DNA of 16,350 nucleotides, from the IMG/VR virus record IMGVR_UViG_3300002026_000032, positions 1 to 16,350 of that record; one strand, given 5' to 3'. Made by a program: the position numbers and the translations under genes. Under the pieces are notes generated by a model, which made no database searches, was not told where the DNA came from, and saw only the letters and a program-made list of their open reading frames with translations. Below are positions 1 through 14,123 of this stretch, piece after piece. Origin of the DNA: a virus. Its lineage: Duplodnaviria; Heunggongvirae; Uroviricota; Caudoviricetes. The first letter of the stretch is position 1, and each line of letters starts with the position of its first letter.

Positions 1-8
1 TATAAATA
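1..8 (+). promoter_or_regulatory. T4-type late promoter motif TATAAATA
   Basis: Exact match to the T4 gp55-dependent late consensus, 30 nt upstream of the likely start (39) of the giant ORF. An 8-mer this AT-rich can occur by chance, so the support is positional. Confidence 0.6.
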
Positions 9-38
9 GTTGTAAGTGAAACTAAAATGGAGTGTATA

Positions 39-3000
39 ATGGTTAAAAAGAAATCCATACTTGAATTCTTTAAGTCAACTGGATCATTGCTATTGGAAGC
101 TAAGAAGGCTAAACAGCCTGTAGTTAATAATTACGCAACAGCCGCAGCCAATGAAGTTATTGCATACGCCAAAGAGAAAGGTGTTGCAGTTACCGACTCA
201 TATGTAAATGATGTTGTTGATAGCTTCAAAGAAGATCTGTTTGATGGTAATCCATCCGGATTCGTTGCATCGGAAAAGAGAAAAATTGATGATGCATCCC
301 GTAGAGGTGATATCAATTATGTGCATGGTAATATTGTTAAAACCGATCTACGAGCTAAATCAAATCGGGTTAGTAATGATATTATAACTAAATCGACATC
401 TACCGGTGTTGATGCTAAAGGGAACCCGATTAACATAACCAGTCGTGGGTTGACTACAGATGGTAATACAGAGAAGAAGAATTCAATTACATCAGGAAAT
501 TTAAAACTTATTCTTGATAATGACATGGTTAAGACATTTATTCGGAATGTTGATGAGTTTGGATCCGATCAAATGATCAATGAACTTCCTGATAATCTCC
601 GTATAGTTAAAGATAATTTTGGTAAGATTTTTAAGATGGATAAAATAACTGGCGTTATCGAGTTTGTCAAAAAGTCTATGTCAAATAAAGCAAGCGACGA
701 TCAATGGGGTGAGGTATTAAAATCTGTAATTTGGAACACATTTGTCAAACCATTCAATGGTGCTGTGAAAAATGTGGTTGATGGTAATAAGATTAAACTG
801 AATGGTATCAAGATTGGTGACCAATTCGTGTCATATGACGAGATGGTTAAGAATCGCAACTCAATCACATCCGATCAGATGTTGGCTGGTAAATTAGACA
901 AATCAATCTCAATTGAAAATCAACTACTGAATATCACTTCACCAGTAGATGCTAAACAGTTTGTATTGTCATTGGATGGTAAAATTCCTGATATCATCGA
1001 TGCCATACAGAATTCGAAGAGTGCTTCATTCTATACCAAAGATACATTTAACTCAGCTATTTCCAAGCTTACGACTTTGCATAATGATAAGGAAGCTGGT
1101 AAACCAGTAGCCACCGAAGAAATTGCTGATGTAGTTTATCGATATGTCCACAAGACATCATCTGATTCAGTCACAACTATTGGTGACATTGATAAGAAGT
1201 TTGATAACAAGAAATATGATACAGAGTATTCTCGCTTGATGGATAAGGGTGATGTGAAATTACCCAGATCATTGGCTGACTCAATCATAACATTCATCAA
1301 CCGAGTTGTTAATGATAAGATGACATTGACTGTATCACAGGCAACATCCGGTCAGAATACATCAAAGATCATTGTCGACAGCAACGCAAAAGACAAGCTT
1401 CGTAAAATTCAGTTGTCATTGGGTGTCACCCTTCAGAAGATTAAAGGGAATAAAACCATACAAGAGTTTGATATGACAACCGATCGATATAATGAATTGG
1501 TTGAAGGTGTAACAGCTGTAGCTCTTTCAATTGCCACAATGAGTCGTAAGGATTCGGAAGAGAGTTATGAACCAAACATAGCATCCATGGTTCGTGCCGT
1601 ATTCACCAAGAAAAAGAATATCGATGTGTTCCTTGATAACATCGCTGTTCCTGGGTACATCCAATTCACAATAAATCAGGGTGAAGTTAAAGATCCAGCT
1701 GAGAATATGATCAAGATGTTTGTTCAAGCAAACAACACCGTATCACCATTGAAAGCTTCCGATAAAGACACAGCACAGCGTCGCAGCGAAAAGGAAGAAG
1801 CTCTTGATGGTATCAATACGCTAATTTCATCAATGTGTAAAACTGAAGCCATCATTGATGCGTATCCCGGTGAAGTGATTGATGCCGTAGAAGATCGTAA
1901 TGATATATCCAAACGGCTAAATGTTCTGGTTGATGGATGGATCATGAGTCGATTGAATTCAATTTATGAAAATACATTGAAGGTTGATGAAGATAATCCA
2001 AAAACAAGGGCACTCACTCAAGCTGACAAGAAGTTTCTGATCGCCGTTACTTCGGGGATCCTTGATACATCAGACGCGCAGGGTGGTATCCGCGTTTATA
2101 CAGGTGTTATCGTTCAACATCTTCAAGATCAATTCAGTGAAGCTTCAAAGAACAATAACACCAAAAATATGTCATTGTCAAAAGAATTAAGTGGTGATTA
2201 TGCTAAGGATAGTTTTTACATCCTTAAACAATATCAGAAGGTTTTAAATAGTGAAAAACCTGATGTTCAGTTGGGGGCTATTGTTGCTTTGTTGAGAAAC
2301 GACGAAGCGTGGAAACCAATCGCCGAAGATCTCATGTCGAAAGATAAGCAGTATCTGTGGTCTATGTATATAGACCAGGGTAAAGATCAAAATGAATCCA
2401 AGTATTATGCTATGGCAAAATATGTTCTAACCGATCTTCTGACACGACCAATGAAGGAACAGCCAGAGATTATCAGCAGAAACCGCGAACTCTTCTCGCT
2501 TGTTTCACGAAACACCAAGACAAAGGATGCTTCAGGAAAAACCATTGAAGTTCCTTCAGCCGATCGAATCGCCATTCAAAAAGCTATTCTTAATCGAGGA
2601 TTGTCTAAGTCTACCGATTCAGCAATTGTTGGGCTGTTTAAGAGGGATATAGCCAAGGATGGTGATAAGGCTGTAACATTCGCATTCCCTAATACAAGCT
2701 TGATGACAAACATGGCTATTGCCAGTTTCATTGTAAGTGGTGGTGATGATCAAATATTTGGTGGTACAAATAACGGAATGTCATATAAAGCGATTGATCA
2801 GTCAAAGAAAGACAAGTTCGTTGCTGGTGTGATAGCACATATCAATTCGGATAAATTTTCTGTGACAGATGATGTACTGGCATTAATTCCGGAAGATAAA
2901 ACAATCAATGATTTTGCAACCAGAAAGCAAGAGTATGTTAATTCTGTGAACAAGGTTGCAATGAAGTTGATGAATCATATCGACATCAAATCTCGGGAAT

Positions 3001-6000
3001 ATATGTATCTGATGGGTCGAAATGAATCTGGTGGAGTTTCATTCAATGTTTCCGATTTAAAAAATAGAGTCGTTGATTTCGTCATGATTGATATGTTGAA
3101 CATGAAAGAGAGTATCAACGCTCCAGCACCAATACATTTGACTAAATTGTATGATGCATTAGAGGGTGTTGTCAATGAGCTTGGTGTTAATCCGATCACC
3201 GTATATCAATTGATCAAATCAAAGATTAAGTTGTTTGACGAGGTTCAATCAATAAAGGTAAATAAGCCCGATGGAACTCCTAATGAGGTTACACCATTCA
3301 ATGATGTCATCAATGATGACAGCATTGCAAAACTTAAAGAGCTGCTACCAAACCTGAAGTTTGATAAAAACACCGGTGTGCTTGGTAAAGAGAAGAACTC
3401 TTTAGCACTTGCCAAGAAAGCTATTGCAATGGCAGATGAGATGTTCGGTATATCTGATCATCCAAACTACCATTCTCTCGGTGGAATTAGCGATCCCGAT
3501 ACAGACTTCGTTGGTATGGTTCGTGATAAGCTTCTCGCCAGTGATAACATTTATGCGGCTAAGAGAGCACTGAGTGTTGAACATAAATACAAAGTTATGG
3601 TTGGAGATCAGTTCATCGAAGGGATTGTTCCTTACAGAGAGTATGTTAAAATCGCCGATACTGATATCCTTGGTGATAAAACTGATATCAATTCATATAA
3701 CAAACTCGGTAAGTTCGAACGATTTGTTGTGGCATATATATGTGCTAAGCAGGTTAATGTACCTATTGAAAAGTTCATACCATCGAATCAATTCAACAAA
3801 CAATTGATTGAAGATGGTGTTGCTATTATTAGCCGTGGTGATTCGAAAGAAACTGAAAACTCAGATTCGTTTACTATGTCTCTTCGTGACTTGACAATGA
3901 AGGTTCAGTTGGTTCATAAGAACCTACGAGCACCAATTGATGTAACTGTAACTGGAATCGATGTTAATGACATTCGATTTGATAGAAGATGGCCTGGATA
4001 TCAAGCCATCGTTGATGCTGGATCTAAAACTGGATTACTTCAGGCTGCAGTTCATTCGTTCAATATGGGTATGCAAGATTTCGTTGGATCCAATACACTC
4101 AGTCAATTCCAGAAGAAGAATGGTGATGTGCTTCCATTCATCAAGAATTTTAAGACTCGAATTTTAAACTCTAGACAGTTTAAAGATGCATGGAATGGTG
4201 CACGGAAGATGATTGGAACTAACACCCCTGGTGTTATATTTGACTCCATAACCGATTTCGATACCAAACAAGAACTTAAAGTCTTAAATTCTATCGATGG
4301 TCAAGTCACTAAAGCTTTAACTCAGCTTAAGGACATCATCGAATCTGCGTATAAGGCCGATAAGAATGCCGCGGGTCAAACATTAAACATAACTGATGAT
4401 AAGGATACACTTCTTAAAGAAATCGATCAACAGCTTCAATTGGTTAATGTGAATATCAGAGATATAATGAATTTGGTTGAGAAAACAAAACTCACCATTG
4501 CCATCCCTTATTCATTGACTAGCATCGAATCTGTACTGAAAATCGATGGCAGCTATATTAACCGCGATTATATGACAAACATTGATGGAACTCCAATCAG
4601 TGATAAGACAATGAATCGTGTTCGATCTATCATGGCAAATGAATCCAAGATGAATTTTGTTAGAGAGGCTGAACGATATGCACACAGTTCGCGTGGAATC
4701 AAAGAGAATAAGCGTCTGCAGATATGGGAAAATGAATCCGACTTCAAGAAATTCTGGGAAGGGTTAACCCATACTCAGGGTGGTAAGGTTCATACTGAAT
4801 CATTGGATGTAAAGTCTATTGAAGATCTTGGTAAGTTTATACAGAATGCATTACCTACTATCAGATTCAATGACAAGTCTGGTGCGTTACAAAGTTTGAT
4901 AACCGCTGTATTTGATAGTGGTGTTGTTGGTGGGACTCATACGAAGCAATCAGTTGAGCGACAGGTTAAATATTATTCATCAATTAAAAAGGGTGAAGAT
5001 GCGACCATACCAATATTAAAGAGCAGAGGTCTTGAGTTTGATAATAAGTCTGCAAGATTCAATGATAAAGATAAAGATAATACTATAGAACATTTTCTTA
5101 ACAGAAAACTCGATAGGAATGACTATGCTAAGTTTATTTCAACTTACACATTCATAACACCAAATCTGTTTGATGATGAGAATCGTAGGATTGTTAACAT
5201 GGTTGCTAGATTAATTGATAAAGTTACGAGTAGCACCGAGCATGATCCGAAAGATGTTATATCATTGCGTAATGAGTTTCTGAATACGATAACTGGCGTT
5301 GCTGCTAGCATTGATAAGAAGCTGACATTTAAGAAAGTTCGTAATGAATCTGTGCTTGATGCAAAGCCATTCAATAAAGAACTTCGGGATTTAGTTAATA
5401 CATCAGCATTCATATCTATGTTTACTGATATTGGAATTGATCAAGCTACAGGTATTGACCTGATAAAGTTGCTATCAAATGCTGTTAATGGTGAGATGGT
5501 ACCTGATATCAATAAAAAATGTATGGATGCCTATACTGTTATGGGTCGAAATCTACAAAAGATTCAGGGTAAATTAGCTGGTACTGATACGACCATATCT
5601 CTAGCTAATGTCTTGAATGAGTTTATTAAAATCGATGTTATGGTTAAGGCCTTTGGTGATACCTTATTTGATGATGAAGTGGCTGATGAACAAGAATCTA
5701 AAGATGCCGGAAAATCTGATTATGAGAAACTTTCTGACATCAATAAAGGGACTAAAGATAGAACCAAAGATGTTGAGAAGATGGGTAAAGTTCAGTTCAA
5801 TAAAATGATACAGGAGTTGGCTGCAACTTTATCAGGTGTATCATCAGATGATCCGAATGAAAACATGAAATCCATCACCCATGGTGGTCGTTCAGCTGAG
5901 TCGTTGGTGAAGTTCAAATCGGTTTATAATGATGAAGTAGTTGCTAAAGTGAAAGAGTATACGGTTACTGGTAAGATGGCAACTCTGGCTGGTTCAGCTA

Positions 6001-6635
6001 AACCACTCCCGGTATCGAAGCTTCCGGAATTCCTTCATGCTCAAATGAGAAAGTTTGGGGATCCTGTTATAGCTGAACTCAAAACTTCGGTTGAATCAAG
6101 ACTTCTTGACGACCCTAAAGCTGCTAAAGAAATGACGGATAAACTCAATGCGATTGAAGGTTTCTTCAAATCTCATGGGCGAGGTGGGATGTCATTTGAT
6201 GCGGCGGATATGACACTTGTAAAAATGATCATGTCCGCAAACACAGCGATCGATGATCTCGATACTGACAGTATGGCTGATGATCTTAATAACTTTATCA
6301 ATGATGCTAAAGATATGGTCATCATTGAGACTCGATCATTACTGAAGTCACCGTTCCCTAATTTTACTGATGATGATAAACTGATGAAAATGATTGAAGG
6401 TATATTCATCAGATTCATTAAGGATAAGGCAAATCGTGAAGTTAAGAGCTGGTGGAAACAGTGGTCTGATAAAGGTGGGGCTAGAAGAATTGGCCAAGAG
6501 TTTGGGTCGGTTGTTGGTCGAGGTGGTCGACACATTGCAGATCTAAACCAGCCAATGAACCAGAGCACTCATTATGGACATCGGGCATCTCTTGTTGAAG
6601 CAGCGAATAGATATTTCAATAAATGCTTCAAGTAG
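39..6635 (+). CDS. Giant hypothetical protein (~2198 aa), probable virion-internal/ejection protein
   Basis: Uninterrupted ORF 27-6635. ATG39 is preferred because GGAG (29-32) sits 6 nt upstream. K/D/I/N-rich, no transmembrane segment or enzyme motif recognised. N-terminus MVKKKSILEFFKSTGSLLLEA. The CDS is near-certain; the function is inferred. Confidence 0.8.
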   Translation: MVKKKSILEFFKSTGSLLLEAKKAKQPVVNNYATAAANEVIAYAKEKGVAVTDSYVNDVVDSFKEDLFDGNPSGFVASEKRKIDDASRRGDINYVHGNIVKTDLRAKSNRVSNDIITKSTSTGVDAKGNPINITSRGLTTDGNTEKKNSITSGNLKLILDNDMVKTFIRNVDEFGSDQMINELPDNLRIVKDNFGKIFKMDKITGVIEFVKKSMSNKASDDQWGEVLKSVIWNTFVKPFNGAVKNVVDGNKIKLNGIKIGDQFVSYDEMVKNRNSITSDQMLAGKLDKSISIENQLLNITSPVDAKQFVLSLDGKIPDIIDAIQNSKSASFYTKDTFNSAISKLTTLHNDKEAGKPVATEEIADVVYRYVHKTSSDSVTTIGDIDKKFDNKKYDTEYSRLMDKGDVKLPRSLADSIITFINRVVNDKMTLTVSQATSGQNTSKIIVDSNAKDKLRKIQLSLGVTLQKIKGNKTIQEFDMTTDRYNELVEGVTAVALSIATMSRKDSEESYEPNIASMVRAVFTKKKNIDVFLDNIAVPGYIQFTINQGEVKDPAENMIKMFVQANNTVSPLKASDKDTAQRRSEKEEALDGINTLISSMCKTEAIIDAYPGEVIDAVEDRNDISKRLNVLVDGWIMSRLNSIYENTLKVDEDNPKTRALTQADKKFLIAVTSGILDTSDAQGGIRVYTGVIVQHLQDQFSEASKNNNTKNMSLSKELSGDYAKDSFYILKQYQKVLNSEKPDVQLGAIVALLRNDEAWKPIAEDLMSKDKQYLWSMYIDQGKDQNESKYYAMAKYVLTDLLTRPMKEQPEIISRNRELFSLVSRNTKTKDASGKTIEVPSADRIAIQKAILNRGLSKSTDSAIVGLFKRDIAKDGDKAVTFAFPNTSLMTNMAIASFIVSGGDDQIFGGTNNGMSYKAIDQSKKDKFVAGVIAHINSDKFSVTDDVLALIPEDKTINDFATRKQEYVNSVNKVAMKLMNHIDIKSREYMYLMGRNESGGVSFNVSDLKNRVVDFVMIDMLNMKESINAPAPIHLTKLYDALEGVVNELGVNPITVYQLIKSKIKLFDEVQSIKVNKPDGTPNEVTPFNDVINDDSIAKLKELLPNLKFDKNTGVLGKEKNSLALAKKAIAMADEMFGISDHPNYHSLGGISDPDTDFVGMVRDKLLASDNIYAAKRALSVEHKYKVMVGDQFIEGIVPYREYVKIADTDILGDKTDINSYNKLGKFERFVVAYICAKQVNVPIEKFIPSNQFNKQLIEDGVAIISRGDSKETENSDSFTMSLRDLTMKVQLVHKNLRAPIDVTVTGIDVNDIRFDRRWPGYQAIVDAGSKTGLLQAAVHSFNMGMQDFVGSNTLSQFQKKNGDVLPFIKNFKTRILNSRQFKDAWNGARKMIGTNTPGVIFDSITDFDTKQELKVLNSIDGQVTKALTQLKDIIESAYKADKNAAGQTLNITDDKDTLLKEIDQQLQLVNVNIRDIMNLVEKTKLTIAIPYSLTSIESVLKIDGSYINRDYMTNIDGTPISDKTMNRVRSIMANESKMNFVREAERYAHSSRGIKENKRLQIWENESDFKKFWEGLTHTQGGKVHTESLDVKSIEDLGKFIQNALPTIRFNDKSGALQSLITAVFDSGVVGGTHTKQSVERQVKYYSSIKKGEDATIPILKSRGLEFDNKSARFNDKDKDNTIEHFLNRKLDRNDYAKFISTYTFITPNLFDDENRRIVNMVARLIDKVTSSTEHDPKDVISLRNEFLNTITGVAASIDKKLTFKKVRNESVLDAKPFNKELRDLVNTSAFISMFTDIGIDQATGIDLIKLLSNAVNGEMVPDINKKCMDAYTVMGRNLQKIQGKLAGTDTTISLANVLNEFIKIDVMVKAFGDTLFDDEVADEQESKDAGKSDYEKLSDINKGTKDRTKDVEKMGKVQFNKMIQELAATLSGVSSDDPNENMKSITHGGRSAESLVKFKSVYNDEVVAKVKEYTVTGKMATLAGSAKPLPVSKLPEFLHAQMRKFGDPVIAELKTSVESRLLDDPKAAKEMTDKLNAIEGFFKSHGRGGMSFDAADMTLVKMIMSANTAIDDLDTDSMADDLNNFINDAKDMVIIETRSLLKSPFPNFTDDDKLMKMIEGIFIRFIKDKANREVKSWWKQWSDKGGARRIGQEFGSVVGRGGRHIADLNQPMNQSTHYGHRASLVEAANRYFNKCFK

Positions 6636-6641
6636 GCTGCT

Positions 6642-6649
6642 TATAAATG
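6642..6649 (+). promoter_or_regulatory. Late-promoter-like motif TATAAATG
   Basis: 7/8 match to TATAAATA in the 54-nt intergenic gap between the giant ORF and the 6690 ORF. Confidence 0.4.
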
Positions 6650-6677
6650 TGGGTGTGGATCAAACCACACTCACATT
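6646..6677 (+). other. 13-bp RNA stem-loop
   Basis: AATGTGGGTGTGG (6646-6658), loop ATCAAA, CCACACTCACATT (6665-6677). One G-U pair favours the + strand RNA. No U-tract; directly followed by SD GAAAGGTG. Confidence 0.8.
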
Positions 6678-6689
6678 GAAAGGTGAAAT

Positions 6690-7103
6690 ATGAATACCAT
6701 TTTAATTTTGTGCATTATCATTCTGCTAACAATTCTCCTGATACTGATCCCCATATCAATAGCCCTATACATCCAAGTTCGGATCGGTATGGATATCATA
6801 TTGATTCCCAAAAAGAATACCACATTCAATGACATTGATAAGATCCTATCAGATCATTTCGGTCATGCAATAGCACAACATCGATTGAACAAATCAGTGT
6901 CAACACTTGATACACTTCTGTTCGGTTTGTGTCAAGATAATAAGCTTCCATTTGATTTCGATTACATTTCAGATCTTATCATATCCGAAGTCAATAGAGT
7001 TGCGTTCACTCCTGAATTTAATCAGATGTATGATGATATGATTGAACATATAAATAAAAGTAACGATGGTGATAACTTTGATGATATTTGGGCTCGGAGG
7101 TAA
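6690..7103 (+). CDS. Membrane-anchored hypothetical protein (137 aa)
   Basis: SD AAGGTG upstream. Strongly hydrophobic N-terminus (ILILCIIILLTILLILIPISIALYI) followed by an acidic soluble domain. Confidence 0.8.
   Translation: MNTILILCIIILLTILLILIPISIALYIQVRIGMDIILIPKKNTTFNDIDKILSDHFGHAIAQHRLNKSVSTLDTLLFGLCQDNKLPFDFDYISDLIISEVNRVAFTPEFNQMYDDMIEHINKSNDGDNFDDIWARR
7049..7056 (+). promoter_or_regulatory. Internal T4-type late promoter motif TATAAATA
   Basis: Exact consensus near the 3' end of the 6690 ORF, about 50 nt upstream of ATG7106. Confidence 0.4.
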
Positions 7104-7105
7104 AG

Positions 7106-7345
7106 ATGCCAAGATTTAATTACAAGTGTAAAGATTGCGGTGCCGTCAAAGATTACATAACAGTTCCAGAGTCATGCCCAGCATGTGGGTGTTCGATTAT
7201 GACTAAGTCATTTTCCCCACCGAAAACTTTGGTAGTTGATGTTGAGGGTGGGTATGAATATAAACATGGAATTCGGGCTTGGCGGACCAGAGTGAACGAA
7301 CATGAGTACGCTCAGATTCTTCTTGGGGATAAGGATCCATACTAA
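7106..7345 (+). CDS. FmdB-family zinc-ribbon protein (79 aa)
   Basis: MPRFNYKCKDCG...CPACG matches the MPxYxYxCxxCG...CPxCG pattern. GGAGG (7096-7100) supports ATG7106 over the longer track start. Confidence 0.85.
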   Translation: MPRFNYKCKDCGAVKDYITVPESCPACGCSIMTKSFSPPKTLVVDVEGGYEYKHGIRAWRTRVNEHEYAQILLGDKDPY

Positions 7346-7671
7346 TGTCAATAGTCAAAGACATCAAATGTGAATACCCAGGGTGTGATATCATCTTCTT
7401 TGGTGATGGTCATAGAAAATATTGTGATGAACACAGCAAGTTGAAGTATCGCAAGAAAATTGAGAAAGCATCAGAAGATGATGCAAACATACTCATCCGA
7501 CATTTATCACATGAACTGTTTACGATCGGTCGAGCATGTGATTGCTGTGGAGTTGATTACAAGATCACTCTATATCCAAAACAGTTCATATACCCAAGGT
7601 ATTGTGAATTACATAGAAATAAATTTAAGAGACGGAATTATAAAGGAGAGTTACATGTTGGCAGTATTTAA
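7345..7671 (+). CDS. Twin zinc-finger protein (108 aa)
   Basis: TAATG overlap with the upstream stop. Two motifs, CEYPGC..KYCDEH and CDCC..RYCELH, each followed by a basic patch. Confidence 0.8.
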   Translation: MSIVKDIKCEYPGCDIIFFGDGHRKYCDEHSKLKYRKKIEKASEDDANILIRHLSHELFTIGRACDCCGVDYKITLYPKQFIYPRYCELHRNKFKRRNYKGELHVGSI

Positions 7672-8011
7672 TAAAACAAAAACCACAAGCAATGGTATTG
7701 AATCGTGGGTTGTCGTTCCAGGAATGGGTGAAGATTCATTATCAATTAAAGTCCATGCTGAGTCATTAAATCGAATCGATATCGAACTGATACCTAATCT
7801 GGAGTGCCAAGAGAGTGACAATCCAATTGCAAATGAAATCATTGATTTTATCATGAATGTTAGTAAAGGCAGCAAGTATACACACCGATCATTTACATAC
7901 AGTTCTGAACGAGATATCGATGTTAATGGCATCACTGCAGATCTGAAGAATGGTGTCATCAAATTTGATATCCCATTCAAGCCAATCAAAACAAAAACTA
8001 TTAAGCTGTAG
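7655..8011 (+). CDS. hsp20: Small heat-shock protein, Hsp20/alpha-crystallin family (118 aa)
   Basis: VVVPGMGEDSLSIKV and IDVNGITADLKNGVIKFDIP match the alpha-crystallin signatures (lPG..I.V and I.A...NGVL.I.lP). AAGGAG precedes ATG7655. Confidence 0.8.
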   Translation: MLAVFNKTKTTSNGIESWVVVPGMGEDSLSIKVHAESLNRIDIELIPNLECQESDNPIANEIIDFIMNVSKGSKYTHRSFTYSSERDIDVNGITADLKNGVIKFDIPFKPIKTKTIKL

Positions 8012-8018
8012 GTGATAA

Positions 8019-9455
8019 GTGGAACCAAATAAACAGCACCCCATTATGGCATATTCAAACATGTCATTGGAAAAGATTCATGAAAAGATATTAGATCTCA
8101 TTGATGAGTATCACAACAAATTTAAAAATGTTGATGGTAATAAATTAAGTGATCCGATCTTAACTACATTCGACAAGCTTGATGTTGATCAGTCAACTAG
8201 GGATAAAATTAGTAAATTACTTGGGTATGCATTGAATTCTAAACAAGAAGATGCTAAGTATTCAATCAAACAGATTATCACTAATGCCGCCCATTGGTAT
8301 ACCAGAAAGCTACCACCATCAATTGATATCAATGATATCATTGGTAGGGCACAGAGTAAAGCATTGAATAAATTTATTACATGGAAGCCTGGGGTAAGTT
8401 CAATAGCCACATATCTAAAACCAGCAATTAGATATGCATTTAATGAGGAAGTTCTGAAGGCTAACGGCCTCACCGGTATGAGTCCACAGCTCATGTCCAG
8501 ATATCTTACGGTGATGGCTATATCACAGAAGTCCGAATCAACTGACCCAACTGAGTTATTGACTATGAATAACGCATCGTTTGATGAGGTTAAACAATTT
8601 GTTGATGACAATTCGATTGATGATGTTGATGTCAGTACCAAGATTCGAAAAAGTAATTCAATCTATGATTACTCATTAACACCGAAGGATATCGAAGCCA
8701 TTGAACGGATTCGGAAGTTTATGAAAGAGAATCCAACACATGCTTCAAATCTAATTCATTCGTTAAAAACTGAATCAACATTTACATTAAGTTTGGATGC
8801 TGGTGTTTCTGATGAGTCGGGTGATACCCACTTGGATAATGTACCCAGTAGTGCTGATGATGTTCGTGTTATTGGTCGCGATGAGAGGTTTAATAGAATT
8901 CTGGATTCACTATTGACAGCTCACCCGAAATTGGATAAAGAGTTTCATATACAGGATAGAAATCTGAACGATTATATTAATGCCCATCTTGATATGAGTG
9001 ATGGGAAAAATATCGAAATGTCCTTGGCTAAATATGATATAACCCGGGGATCATTCGAACGATTTGAAGAGAAATATATCAAACGAAACCCATCAATCTC
9101 ATATCCAAAAGATGATAAAAAAGATGATACTAGGTCTCAAGATGAGGTGTATCAAGATCGAATGAAAGAGATCATGGATGAATTGAGTGATATGTATGAC
9201 CAAAGGGTAAAACGAAATCCTGATGGGAATCATCCTGCATTCACTGAGAATCTAGCAAAGGCTGTAGCTGCGATCAAACTAGGTAATTCATCTGACAGAA
9301 ATTTCATAAACAAAGTTTATAAAATGAATGGTGTTACCAAAGATGCTGTAATGGAACTGCTGACATATATCAATGATGAATCAGATCTTAACGAATCAGT
9401 CAATCATAATCGTGTTGGGTGGATTTCAGACTTACTTAGTAAGCTAAAAATGTAA
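8019..9455 (+). CDS. Divergent sigma-70-family RNA polymerase sigma factor with N- and C-terminal extensions (478 aa)
   Basis: Region 2-like IITNAAHWYTRKLPPSIDINDII...SIATYLKPAIRYAFNEEV (FliA-like), region 3-like DPTEL and TLSLDAGVSDESGDTHLDNV, degenerate region 4-like ITRGSFERFEEKYIK. GTG start with AGGTG upstream. Confidence 0.7.
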   Translation: MEPNKQHPIMAYSNMSLEKIHEKILDLIDEYHNKFKNVDGNKLSDPILTTFDKLDVDQSTRDKISKLLGYALNSKQEDAKYSIKQIITNAAHWYTRKLPPSIDINDIIGRAQSKALNKFITWKPGVSSIATYLKPAIRYAFNEEVLKANGLTGMSPQLMSRYLTVMAISQKSESTDPTELLTMNNASFDEVKQFVDDNSIDDVDVSTKIRKSNSIYDYSLTPKDIEAIERIRKFMKENPTHASNLIHSLKTESTFTLSLDAGVSDESGDTHLDNVPSSADDVRVIGRDERFNRILDSLLTAHPKLDKEFHIQDRNLNDYINAHLDMSDGKNIEMSLAKYDITRGSFERFEEKYIKRNPSISYPKDDKKDDTRSQDEVYQDRMKEIMDELSDMYDQRVKRNPDGNHPAFTENLAKAVAAIKLGNSSDRNFINKVYKMNGVTKDAVMELLTYINDESDLNESVNHNRVGWISDLLSKLKM

Positions 9456-9458
9456 AAA

Positions 9459-9489
9459 TGATGGGCATGGAATAAATCCATGCCCATTA
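9459..9489 (-). terminator. Intrinsic terminator between convergent blocks
   Basis: Perfect 11-bp core ATGGGCATGGA / TCCATGCCCAT with a 5-nt loop. On the minus strand it is followed by CA-TTTTT. It may also act on + transcripts. Confidence 0.8.
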
Positions 9490-9519
9490 CACATCGCGGT
9501 TGAGGTCTCAAGTCTCGTT

Positions 9520-10299
9520 TTAACGCTGTTTTCCCCATGTGGTATACCAAACTGGGTCTACATTCATTACCACGGCAGCTGATGCAATCTTTGACATGTA
9601 TACATGATAATCCGCGGTTGATGTTGACAGAGCATCAAGGTTCCCTGAGTCTGAGTTCATATAACTTTGGATCGTGACCGCAGACAAAGCTGACAGCAAC
9701 AGGGTCGGTGACATGGGTATGGTAAATGTAGGATCAACTGATGTGGTTGGTGTTGCATCAAAAATCTTAGACAGTTCGGTCAGTTGATTGATGAATGACA
9801 TATAAGCCATACGGTGCTGTGTTGCGATGTTTGCTGTATCCATTACGATACGATACTGGAAAATTGCAGCACGAATCAATCTTCTGAATGGAATCAGAAG
9901 GTCATACGCATAATCATATTCACCGGTACCCATCAAGTTTGGATCAATATCAGTGATCAAAGTTCGCAGTCCGGTAGTCGCAGTTTCAACAGCTTCAACG
10001 GACCGGTTGTCGGTTGTAATTGACATTGTGAACTGATCACACCCGTCGGCATTAACTGTAACAATCAGAGCACTGTTGGCAATCATACTGGCTGCTGGGA
10101 TTGTTAATTTATAGATGCCGGGAAAGTTTACATTCTCCGTAACAGTCAGTCCAGTGATGGTTGATTCGGTAGTTGATGTGTACCGGATACATGCAGTTGT
10201 AATTCCAGTGGCACCAACTTTGATTGCGGGTCGAGTTAGTGTATCAACAAGTGTGAATAACACCACACAATCTTGATTTGGGGTTCTTAAAAATTCCAC
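9520..10299 (-). CDS. Thr-rich hypothetical protein, possibly a virion structural protein (259 aa)
   Basis: AAGGAG-N6-GTG at 10299 is preferred to the track start, which overlaps the ATPase gene. Beta-strand-like N-half (FPGIYKLTIPAA) and helical C-half. Confidence 0.7.
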   Translation of the reverse strand: MEFLRTPNQDCVVLFTLVDTLTRPAIKVGATGITTACIRYTSTTESTITGLTVTENVNFPGIYKLTIPAASMIANSALIVTVNADGCDQFTMSITTDNRSVEAVETATTGLRTLITDIDPNLMGTGEYDYAYDLLIPFRRLIRAAIFQYRIVMDTANIATQHRMAYMSFINQLTELSKIFDATPTTSVDPTFTIPMSPTLLLSALSAVTIQSYMNSDSGNLDALSTSTADYHVYMSKIASAAVVMNVDPVWYTTWGKQR

Positions 10300-10327
10300 G
10301 GATATCTCCTTATTTATTTTCTTAGAA

Positions 10328-11080
10328 TCATGTGTACTTAACAACCAGATCTTCCCAATTATCATCATTCATTGCAAAGTTGATCCCTTTAACAAGTGTC
10401 CGGAGATCAACGACTTTGTCTGAGCCATGATTCAGTTGAATCAGATTTAATACCTCTTCCTTAACATTTATAGGAGCTTGTGGATATATGCATTTGAGAA
10501 TGGCTCGCATGTGTTTAAACATGTCAGCCCGGCTAAGTGATACATCAATATGGGTGCATCGAGAAACAACAGCCGAATCGATCTCTGATATGCGTTTATT
10601 GCTAATGAATATCAGAGTTTTCGTGTAGGTGAATGAATCTGGAATCTGATCGTTACTCAATAGTTTCAATTCCAATTGATGATTTCTTGTTCCATTGGCT
10701 GAGATCAGAACATCAGATGGATATGTACTTCTTGAGTTCCAACACACCGGTGAGACTCGGGTGTCCATGACCGATTTCAGAATGTCAATTCCAACTTTAT
10801 CCTTAAGGATTTTATCACAGTCATCGAAGATCATCACTTCGATCATGTCATTCATTTGAGCTCGATACAGTTCGATGTAGAACTCTTTGATTGTTGAATA
10901 GCCGGATACAATTTTATAGCCGGATTTTGATACAAGCCGGTTAACCACAGTCTCAACTGAATGAGACTTACCCTGGCCGGGAAGACCAGTAACAATCAAT
11001 TTTTTGATGTTACTGGTCACAGCCATAGTGGTTAGTCGGTATAAGTCATCGAACACTTTTGGGTATTCTGAGTATACCAT
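10328..11080 (-). CDS. Stand-alone AAA+ family ATPase (250 aa)
   Basis: Walker A GLPGQGKS, Walker B VMIFDDCD, sensor-1 IFISN, Arg finger SAVVSRC. GAGG SD before ATG11080. Confidence 0.85.
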   Translation of the reverse strand: MVYSEYPKVFDDLYRLTTMAVTSNIKKLIVTGLPGQGKSHSVETVVNRLVSKSGYKIVSGYSTIKEFYIELYRAQMNDMIEVMIFDDCDKILKDKVGIDILKSVMDTRVSPVCWNSRSTYPSDVLISANGTRNHQLELKLLSNDQIPDSFTYTKTLIFISNKRISEIDSAVVSRCTHIDVSLSRADMFKHMRAILKCIYPQAPINVKEEVLNLIQLNHGSDKVVDLRTLVKGINFAMNDDNWEDLVVKYT

Positions 11081-11090
11081 ACTATCCTCA

Positions 11091-11417
11091 CTAAGATAAT
11101 TTAATTGTGAACTCCATACACATGGGGTCTGATGGTTGGTCTGGGTATGCAAGCTCGAATGTGAATCGCTCATCATTCTCGTTTGTGTTTGGAAACACTT
11201 TTGCTTTCATCATCTCAACCTGAAGACTGAGATCTGATATGAGTCCCTGAGCTCCATACTTAGGTCTGTTGTTGAACTTCAGAATCAACCGATTCATCAT
11301 ACGAACACCACCGGTCTCTGGGAATACAACCAGATCGCACATGAACTGGTTAATACGCTTCTTAATCATTTCTAATGTCGTTGAGTCGAAATTGTCATGC
11401 ATCAATTTAATAACCAT
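11091..11417 (-). CDS. Hypothetical protein (108 aa)
   Basis: AAGGAGG SD, fits the gene tiling. Weak resemblance to a tail-sheath C-terminal domain (see findings). Confidence 0.75.
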   Translation of the reverse strand: MVIKLMHDNFDSTTLEMIKKRINQFMCDLVVFPETGGVRMMNRLILKFNNRPKYGAQGLISDLSLQVEMMKAKVFPNTNENDERFTFELAYPDQPSDPMCMEFTIKLS

Positions 11418-14063: not shown

Positions 14064-14093
14064 TTGAATCTCCTTCTAAGGATTTAATAATTT

Positions 14094-14122
14094 AAAATAT
14101 GATGTGATGTGATGAGAGTCAA
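14094..14122 (-). promoter_or_regulatory. Sigma-70-type promoter
   Basis: TTGACT (14122-14117), 17-nt spacer, TATTTT (14099-14094), in the intergenic gap upstream of the SD and ATG14063. Confidence 0.7.
14100..14114. repeat. Perfect pentanucleotide tandem repeat (TGATG)3, read as (CATCA)3 on the minus strand
   Basis: Read directly from the sequence; occupies 15 of the 17 nt of the promoter spacer. Confidence 0.9.
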
Positions 14123-14123
14123 A

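Follow-up and report, generated by a model that had tools for sequence, protein, structure and literature searches.

What does the open reading frame (ORF) at positions 8019-9455 of an uncultured phage genome encode: a working sigma factor, an imitation of one, or an unrelated helical protein? The window analysed here is the first 16,350 nucleotides (nt) of a linear 122,927-nt phage contig from IMG/VR (record IMGVR_UViG_3300002026_000032), which is ~55% complete by CheckV. A first-pass annotation, made from the sequence alone, had described the product as an oversized, degenerate, FliA-like sigma factor that could be either a true sigma or a sigma mimic. We refer to this product as P0001. With a probability of roughly 55%, we favour the reading that P0001 is a very divergent phage factor of the sigma-70 family that would redirect the host RNA polymerase, and that the element TATAAAT is the best candidate for its target. 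The sigma-family assignment is made because three approaches agree: profile-profile alignment, the ESM Atlas, and a fold search with an AlphaFold2 model. The gene is as follows.

8019..9455, plus strand: complete ORF of the sigma-like protein P0001; 478 amino acids (aa), GTG start, TAA stop.

The frame is open for 478 codons from the GTG, as first claimed. A TAA lies directly upstream of the GTG at 8019, and the first residues (VE..HPI) are kept in the one relative of P0001, so that this GTG is the likely start. The relative, P0002 (472 aa, 33% identity over the full length, E 5.9e-46), was the only one recovered by an exhaustive HMMER search of 1.84 billion cluster representatives. It is located on a 4.2-kb JGI contig (L002) that has the same gene order as the window, and the existence of a full-length homologue in a syntenic position indicates that the P0001 gene is real and conserved. 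A word-indexed protein search, made with the single sequence and also with a profile, found no relative beyond P0002. Searching 50,697 phage records with P0001 by tblastn gave nothing, scanning IMG/VR with either the sigma alignment or the ATPase that is conserved next to the gene gave no further relatives, and the genes around the PA5oct homologue of that ATPase include none that is sigma-like. Identity between P0001 and P0002 is 48% in the core of regions 2.1-2.4 (aa 94-153), 36% in the linker, 22% in sigma domain 4 (sigma4) and 30% in the C-terminal domain. The flanking genes at 7460-8011, 9520-10368 and 10328-11176 are 65%, 67% and 84% identical to their counterparts on L002, respectively; relative to these three genes, divergence is locally accelerated at the sigma-like gene.

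Sequence evidence for sigma-family membership comes from hhalign comparisons made with the alignment of P0001 and P0002. Against enterobacterial FliA, residues 86-146 align with residues 23-84 of E. coli FliA, which correspond to region 2 (score 16.9, E 0.21). This is the region 2 segment in which sigma motifs had first been quoted; the motifs are present, and hhalign picks the segment independently. Against a mixed sigma profile consisting of RpoD, RpoS, RpoH and FliA, residues 86-147 align with sigma70 386-445 (regions 2.1-2.4; score 22.3) and residues 321-358 with sigma70 561-599 (region 4.2; score 19.2). A looser setting produced a single alignment of 102 columns that runs from the region 3.2 motif through the end of region 4.2 and pairs SLDAGVSDESGDTHLDNV of P0001 with ISMETPIGDDEDSHLGDFI of sigma70. 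Regions 2, 3.2 and 4.2 of P0001 therefore follow one another in the correct sigma order. The whole-protein score of 22.3 compares with shuffle maxima of 19.7 (global) and 22.2 (local), and none of 120 column shuffles scored as high. The N-terminal part scored 19.1 against a shuffle maximum of 17.9, and residues 250-365 scored 22.7 against 20.5, with 0 of 100 shuffles as high in each case. For scale, equally shallow profiles give T4 gp55 and sigma70, an accepted remote pair, a score of only 15.1.

The ESM Atlas points to the same family. Its feature search returned a score of 0.95 for P0001, with named neighbour clusters and all displayed Pfam families belonging to sigma-70 or related helix-turn-helix families, and 10 of 10 rows of its structure search are from the sigma-70 family.

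We also compared predicted structures of P0001 with known folds. Given P0001 as a single sequence, AlphaFold2 produced an unusable model with a mean predicted local distance difference test (pLDDT) score of 36. The model built on the two-sequence alignment has a mean pLDDT of 57.8, with helical blocks at 60-83, and a predicted template modelling (pTM) score of 0.35. Sigma factors dominate the list of Foldseek matches in the PDB, with WhiG the best (E 0.076). An exhaustive comparison of the model with 48,161 PDB representatives using VIA-align placed sigma factors in all 18 of the top 18 positions, and the first unrelated chain is the 19th. Residues 13-149 superpose on residues 2-115 of WhiG with a Z score of 8.9 and a root-mean-square deviation (rmsd) of 3.4 Å over 110 residues, where, by the tool's own note, Z below ~13 can occur by chance among helical proteins. 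Structure prediction thus finds a sigma region 2 fold. Other matches to sigma domain 2 (sigma2) are those of Mycobacterium tuberculosis SigA domain 2 (Z 8.7), Thermus aquaticus (Taq) SigA domain 2 (Z 8.6) and E. coli sigma70 (Z 8.1), and sigma32, SigE, pro-sigmaK, sigma28, RpoS and SigI are also among the top 18. T4 gp55 superposes on residues 14-149 with Z 7.3 and an rmsd of 3.1 Å over 93 residues. Residues 12-254 of the model match sigma2 plus sigma3 of several SigA chains (165-174 residues, rmsd 5.3-5.5 Å), and full-length sigma superpositions extend to model residues 358-363. The structural case, qualified as it is by the model, stands on the family purity of the match list and on the agreement of methods, not on one score.

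Several points weigh against this reading. Pfam, NCBIfam and PDB sequence searches are blank for sigma, whether made with the whole of P0001, with fragments or with the two-sequence profile, and no individual score is conventionally significant. The single hhalign E-values are only 0.009-0.2, and these hold for one comparison. The AlphaFold2 model is based on two sequences only, Foldseek gives no PDB match at E <= 0.001, and Z scores of 8-9 are middling for helical proteins. P0001 also diverges much faster (33% identity to P0002) than its neighbours (65-84%). Finally, the core-binding consensus of region 2.2 (DLIQEGNIGL type) is lost: P0001 has DIIGRAQSKAL and P0002 DLIGEGESIAY, and only the Asp and the hydrophobic spacing are retained. 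The replacement of the QEGNIGL stretch by GRAQSKAL, pointed out in the first-pass annotation, is thus borne out. T4 gp55 is also without the region 2.2 consensus and still binds core (PMC7892883).

These points bear on the explanation that P0001 is no sigma homologue at all, and that a shallow alignment together with commonplace helix packing produces its likeness to sigma factors. Such an origin would account for the blank hidden Markov model (HMM) searches, for Z scores in a range that chance can reach among helical proteins and for a pTM of only 0.35. It would not readily account for the convergence of three partly independent methods on a single family, its regions correctly ordered, for the top 18 of 48,161 chains coming from that one family, or for an acidic 3.2 motif and a 4.2 helix-turn-helix at the expected spacing. 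We consider it very unlikely.

Within the sigma-70 family, the label FliA-like proves too specific. WhiG is the best structural match, yet sigmas of groups 1, 2 and 3 all score within 1 Z unit of one another, and in its 3.2 motif P0001 is nearer to sigma70 than to FliA; assignment to group 3 is not established, and NCBIfam FliA does not match P0001. The Sigma70_r2 (PF04542), r3 and r4 models, against which the protein could be checked, gave no match at E up to 10 for P0001 or for five fragments each of P0001 and P0002, and a six-frame scan of the contig with Sigma70_r2 was empty. P0001 has the same order of sigma2, sigma3, 3.2 linker and sigma4 as the group 3 sigmas (FliA and WhiG; PDB 7LQ4 for WhiG, 1RP3 and 6PMJ for sigma28). 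It also has motifs in common with E. coli FliA, namely (R/K)LPxS(V/I)xxxD(L/I)(L/I) in region 2.1 and (S/T)TY...IR in region 2.3. Compared with FliA and WhiG, P0001 is twice as long (478 aa, against 239 for FliA, in keeping with the size first given), has no Pfam or NCBIfam match, has lost the 2.2 consensus, has ~50 more residues in sigma3 and carries 122 extra residues at the C-terminus. Its parts, as delimited by alignment and by the AlphaFold2 model, are these.

8055..8180, plus strand: N-terminal part, aa 13-54; predicted sigma-1.2-like helix (aa 17-34), then a disordered loop (AlphaFold2 model).
8181..8477, plus strand: putative sigma domain 2, aa 55-153; regions 2.1-2.4 at ~86-147, with a divergent 2.2 (GRAQSKAL) (hhalign; VIA-align Z 8.0-8.9).
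8478..8774, plus strand: putative enlarged sigma domain 3, aa 154-252 (model alignment to SigA chains).
8610-8681, plus strand: variable disordered loop in sigma3, aa 198-221; low pLDDT, 16 residues absent in P0002.
8775..8882, plus strand: acidic region 3.2-like linker, aa 253-288, motif SLDAGVSDESGDTHLDNV; aligned with sigma70 ISMETPIGDDEDSHLGDFI and disordered in the model.
8883..9086, plus strand: weak sigma domain 4, aa 289-356, with a 4.2-like helix-turn-helix LAKYDITRGSFERFEEKYIKR (hhalign 19.2-22.7).
9087..9452, plus strand: C-terminal extension, aa 357-478; short disordered spacer, then about five predicted helices from aa 374 (AlphaFold2 model).

The first-pass annotation had put the N-terminal extension at ~80 aa. 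An extension is present, but it measures ~55-65 aa and holds the sigma-1.2-like helix rather than a foreign module; residues 12-150 of the model align with Taq SigA 109-271. Sigma2 is the best-conserved part between P0001 and P0002. The ~50-aa enlargement of sigma3 relative to FliA holds, and includes the disordered loop at 198-221. In the linker, the pattern LD....SDES.D is kept in P0002. Region 4 is as weak as first described (22% identity to P0002, hhalign 19.2-22.7), and its recognition helix reads DITRGSFERFEEKYIKR. The C-terminal extension of ~120 aa, also correctly noted, occupies aa 357-478.

This C-terminal domain gives the sole sequence-level signal of gp55 in P0001, and the signal is weak. 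Residues 375-452 match positions 7-83 of the 181 in PHROG 234 (T4 gp55) with E 1.7e-3 and 19.5 bits, and hhalign scores the domain at 20.2 against a seven-sequence gp55 alignment, with 0 of 100 shuffles as high. The match lies on the C-terminal domain, whereas in structure gp55 resembles sigma2, in the N-terminal part. Residues E70, D74 and E77 of gp55 contact the beta-prime clamp helices (PMC7892883), and they are not conserved in the aligned C-terminal segment. Searched alone in the Atlas, the domain gave an uninformative 0.75 with low-scoring helix-turn-helix neighbours, and hhalign found no match between it and the protein's own sigma4, extracytoplasmic function (ECF) sigmas or the C-terminal extension of the phiA8-29 sigma. 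By inspection we also rejected a clamp-binding tail: P0001 ends in WISDLLSKLKM, compared with SLDFLYEAND and variants in seven gp55 proteins.

How might such a protein act? We infer core binding, promoter specificity and any role of the extra C-terminal domain along the following lines. In binding the core of the host RNA polymerase, P0001 would place domain 2 against the beta-prime clamp helices and domain 4 against the beta flap, while the acidic 3.2 linker would thread the active-site and RNA-exit channel. The resulting holoenzyme would be steered to the promoters of the phage. Since conservation is strongest in domain 2 and the first part of domain 3 and weakest in domain 4, recognition would probably be dominated by a -10-type element. 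A complex prediction of P0001 residues 1-160 with E. coli beta-prime 240-340 scored 0.48, against 0.34 for the best control, and speaks neither for nor against binding.

A sigma-like fold could also belong to a protein that initiates nothing. As a late sigma mimic or decoy, also raised in the first-pass annotation, P0001 would block binding of the host sigma to core, or titrate a host anti-sigma factor or regulator. The degenerate region 2.2 and the weak sigma4 speak for such a protein, and the fast divergence relative to its neighbours and the late-looking promoter context fit as well. Conservation is best, however, in the 2.3/2.4-like segment, the 3.2 motif and the first part of sigma3, a pattern that fits DNA melting and initiation rather than a simple plug. 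Known phage inhibitors of host transcription are, moreover, usually small proteins. A decoy therefore seems unlikely to us.

The polymerase with which P0001 would act is suggested by the promoters of the phage. Early genes and the GroEL gene have host-type TTGACT-N17-TAxxTT promoters (in the form TTGACT-N17-TA(A/T)TTT); an AT-rich leader comes next, and after it an extended Shine-Dalgarno sequence, CTTAGGAGG or TTAGAAGGAG. Examples are found at window 14064-14123 (minus strand), contig 16661-16724 and contig 54414-54490 (minus strand). The presence of host-type early promoters indicates that the phage uses the host polymerase. No Pfam match to a phage multisubunit RNA polymerase, and no DFDGD motif in any frame, was found in the 123-kb contig, itself ~55% complete; this counts weakly against the first-pass suggestion that the factor acts with a non-host polymerase.

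A specific form of that suggestion is that P0001 is the sigma-like subunit of a non-canonical phage RNA polymerase, in the manner of AR9 gp226 or phiKZ gp68. The sigma-like subunit of the AR9 non-virion polymerase (PDB 7S01 chain A) has a comparable 463 aa and a sigma2-like domain, and it matches the P0001 model weakly (7s01_A, Z 5.8 over 117 residues). The phage encodes GroEL, as do several jumbo phages, and P0001 has its operon in common with an unexplained giant protein of 2202 aa. The AR9 subunit, however, serves a phage-encoded polymerase, of which the 123-kb contig yielded neither Pfam match nor DFDGD-type motif; the early promoters are of host type; and cellular sigma factors match P0001 far better than the AR9 subunit does. 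We regard as highly improbable this reading, on which the polymerase genes would lie in the missing half of the genome or be too divergent to be recognised, the 2202-aa neighbour being one possibility.

The host of the gene is an uncultured myovirus with a tail sheath and with a portal ~25% identical to T4-type portals. Its 123-kb contig also encodes GroEL, NrdD, an ATP-dependent ligase and a helicase, has a G+C content of 39.7% and uses Shine-Dalgarno sites. Among public runs, the sole DNA match to the phage is one microbial-mat metagenome, probably the sample from which the contig came, and no RNA runs matching it are listed.

TATAAAT is the best candidate target because no other phage-specific class of promoter can be seen in the genome. 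The contig contains 52 copies, of which 16 lie 10-80 nt upstream of a co-oriented gene, where 2.2 are expected (P 2.4e-10). All 16 fall either in the first 7.1 kb of the window or in the late region at 66-118 kb, which holds DNA-metabolism and virion genes; the 13 beyond the window lie at contig 66,722-117,457 (loci L005-L008). The box consensus is (C/T)TATAAAT(A/G), often followed by a GT-rich stretch, and boxes precede NrdD, the sheath, other virion genes and the giant ORF. By their sequence and placement we assign these sites to a T4-type late promoter class, an assignment that does not by itself identify P0001 as the reader. Late promoters of the TATAAATA type, as used by T4 gp55, are thus present in the same genome as P0001. 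The following elements surround the P0001 gene.

1..8, plus strand: TATAAATA box heading the co-directional block whose last gene is that of P0001; 26 nt upstream of the 2202-aa ORF.
27-6635, plus strand: 2202-aa orphan ORF, first gene of the packed block upstream of P0001.
27..8011, plus strand: packed block upstream of P0001, comprising the 2202-aa orphan, a 137-aa ORF, an 85-aa zinc-ribbon ORF, a 108-aa ORF and an ORF resembling small heat-shock proteins.
6642..6648, plus strand: TATAAAT box, 48 nt upstream of the ORF at 6690-7103.
7049..7056, plus strand: TATAAATA box, 39 nt upstream of the ORF at 7088-7345 (zinc-ribbon protein); the closest promoter-like site upstream of P0001.
9459..9489, no strand assigned: strong hairpin between convergent genes, 13 bp perfect, -21.2 kcal/mol, z -4.6.

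No private sigma70-type promoter stands out directly upstream of P0001; the region 6500-9600 has 13 matches, with 14.3 expected. In a separate scan the hairpin has 11 pairs with a T-run on the minus strand, and from its sequence it is likely a two-way terminator that ends the operon.

The main doubt about TATAAAT as the target is that P0001 is itself located behind those same boxes; if P0001 is their reader, its first expression is unexplained. A second difficulty is that the contig is ~55% complete, and T4-like phages normally carry gp55, some with a separate sigma70-type gene in addition, so that a gp55 in the missing part may be the true reader of TATAAAT. Searches of the 123 kb for gp55, gp33 and gp45, made with T4 sequences, clamp Pfam models and home-made gp55 and sigma HMMs, found none, and the home-made HMMs miss even P0001; nor was any other sigma-like or gp55-like ORF found in the fragment. 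As the contig is only ~55% complete and divergence is high, the absence of late machinery or of a polymerase is weak evidence.

These facts leave room for P0001 as an accessory sigma that serves a different set of promoters, of the phage or of the host, while gp55, gp33 and the clamp, encoded in the missing part of the genome, read TATAAAT. A T4-type portal (~25% identity) leads one to expect gp55 as a core gene, the contig is ~55% complete, T4-like cyanophages such as ACG-2014f carry gp55 together with a sigma70-type gene, and P0001 stands behind TATAAAT boxes as a late product would. Against this arrangement, no third promoter motif came out of the intergenic regions; those of the early region showed only host-type promoters and extended Shine-Dalgarno sites. 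The failure to detect gp55, gp33 and gp45 in 123 kb also argues against it, weakly given the divergence and the incomplete contig. We hold an accessory role to be possible, though not probable.

The opposite arrangement, in which P0001 itself reads TATAAAT in a far-T4 lineage without gp55, as a full-length sigma (sigma2 to sigma4 with an additional domain) doing the job that in T4 is divided between gp55 and gp33, seems rather unlikely to us. If true, P0001 could mark an evolutionary intermediate on the way from ordinary sigma factors to the gp55/gp33/clamp system, and its reading of T4-type late promoters would bear on the origin of gp55 and gp33. In a bolder variant, the virion could carry the factor and deliver it together with the DNA, so as to start the following infection, as the gene would be expressed from a late-type operon beside a giant candidate virion protein.

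Comparison with known phage factors places our favoured reading, that of a divergent sigma redirecting the host polymerase. T4 gp55 (PHROG 234; PDB 7D7D chain F, with gp33 and the gp45 clamp), described in PMC7892883, is likewise a highly diverged sigma-family protein of a T4-type myovirus with TATAAAT(A) late boxes. It has 185 aa and consists only of a sigma2-like domain, a helix-loop-helix and a C-terminal clamp-binding motif. Unlike gp55, P0001 has sigma3, the 3.2 linker and sigma4, and it is without the SLDFLY-type acidic tail. Oversized sigmas are annotated in other phages, among them gp007 of Aeromonas phage phiA8-29 (433 aa) and those of Vibrio phages VAP7 (415 aa) and Kuja (685 aa). 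The phiA8-29 protein, with region 2 at aa 57-119, region 4 at aa 260-308 and ~125 extra C-terminal residues, has the overall layout of P0001, but these oversized sigmas are recognised by Pfam (E 1e-10 to 1e-12), whereas P0001 is not, and the C-terminal extensions of the phiA8-29 sigma and P0001 are dissimilar. T4-like cyanophages (Synechococcus ACG-2014f, S-H34 and S-N03) carry a multi-domain gene of sigma70 type beside gp55; records KJ019143 and NC_047713, of the ACG-2014f group, list the gp55 late sigma plus a separate gene annotated as a sigma-70 subunit. These cyanophage sigmas are ~30% identical to RpoS and plainly host-like, in contrast to P0001, which has no detectable sequence relative except P0002.

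Phage sigma-70-family factors, oversized ones among them, and T4-like phages with an extra sigma were thus known already. The novelty lies in the degree of divergence (an orphan family of two that HMMs do not pick up), in the extra, unrelated C-terminal domain and in a promoter context of late type. Phage sigma factors are a classic route by which host RNA polymerase is reprogrammed, and P0001, on our reading, illustrates how far a sigma can drift with its fold kept: it escapes HMM detection and has one relative in 1.84 billion representatives. Standard annotation would call it hypothetical, which implies that phage transcription programmes in metagenomes are under-annotated.

The remaining observations concern the neighbourhood. 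The 2202-aa ORF at 27-6635 has no match in Pfam, PHROGs or PDB sequences and may be a virion protein. The ORF directly upstream of P0001 (7460-8011, plus strand) matches Hsp20/alpha-crystallin weakly (E 0.0045). On L002 its homologue begins ~42 codons later, so that an internal start is probably the correct one and the ORF at 7345-7671 is overlapped by less than listed. At 10328-11176 on the minus strand the window encodes an AAA-type ATPase (PHROG 1250, E 1.7e-27) with a weak clamp-loader signal. Its homologues, at ~25% identity, occur in T4-like Aeromonas phages, in Acinetobacter and Vibrio phages and in jumbo phages (PA5oct); some records name them thioredoxin, which looks like a mis-annotation. 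Beyond the window, at contig 37,902-38,045 (L004:1902-2045), a 70-nt unit with an internal 40-nt sub-repeat is repeated 2.1 times at 98% identity. It sits in a 573-nt gap that separates divergent blocks of early genes, and the repeat region could be a regulatory or origin region.

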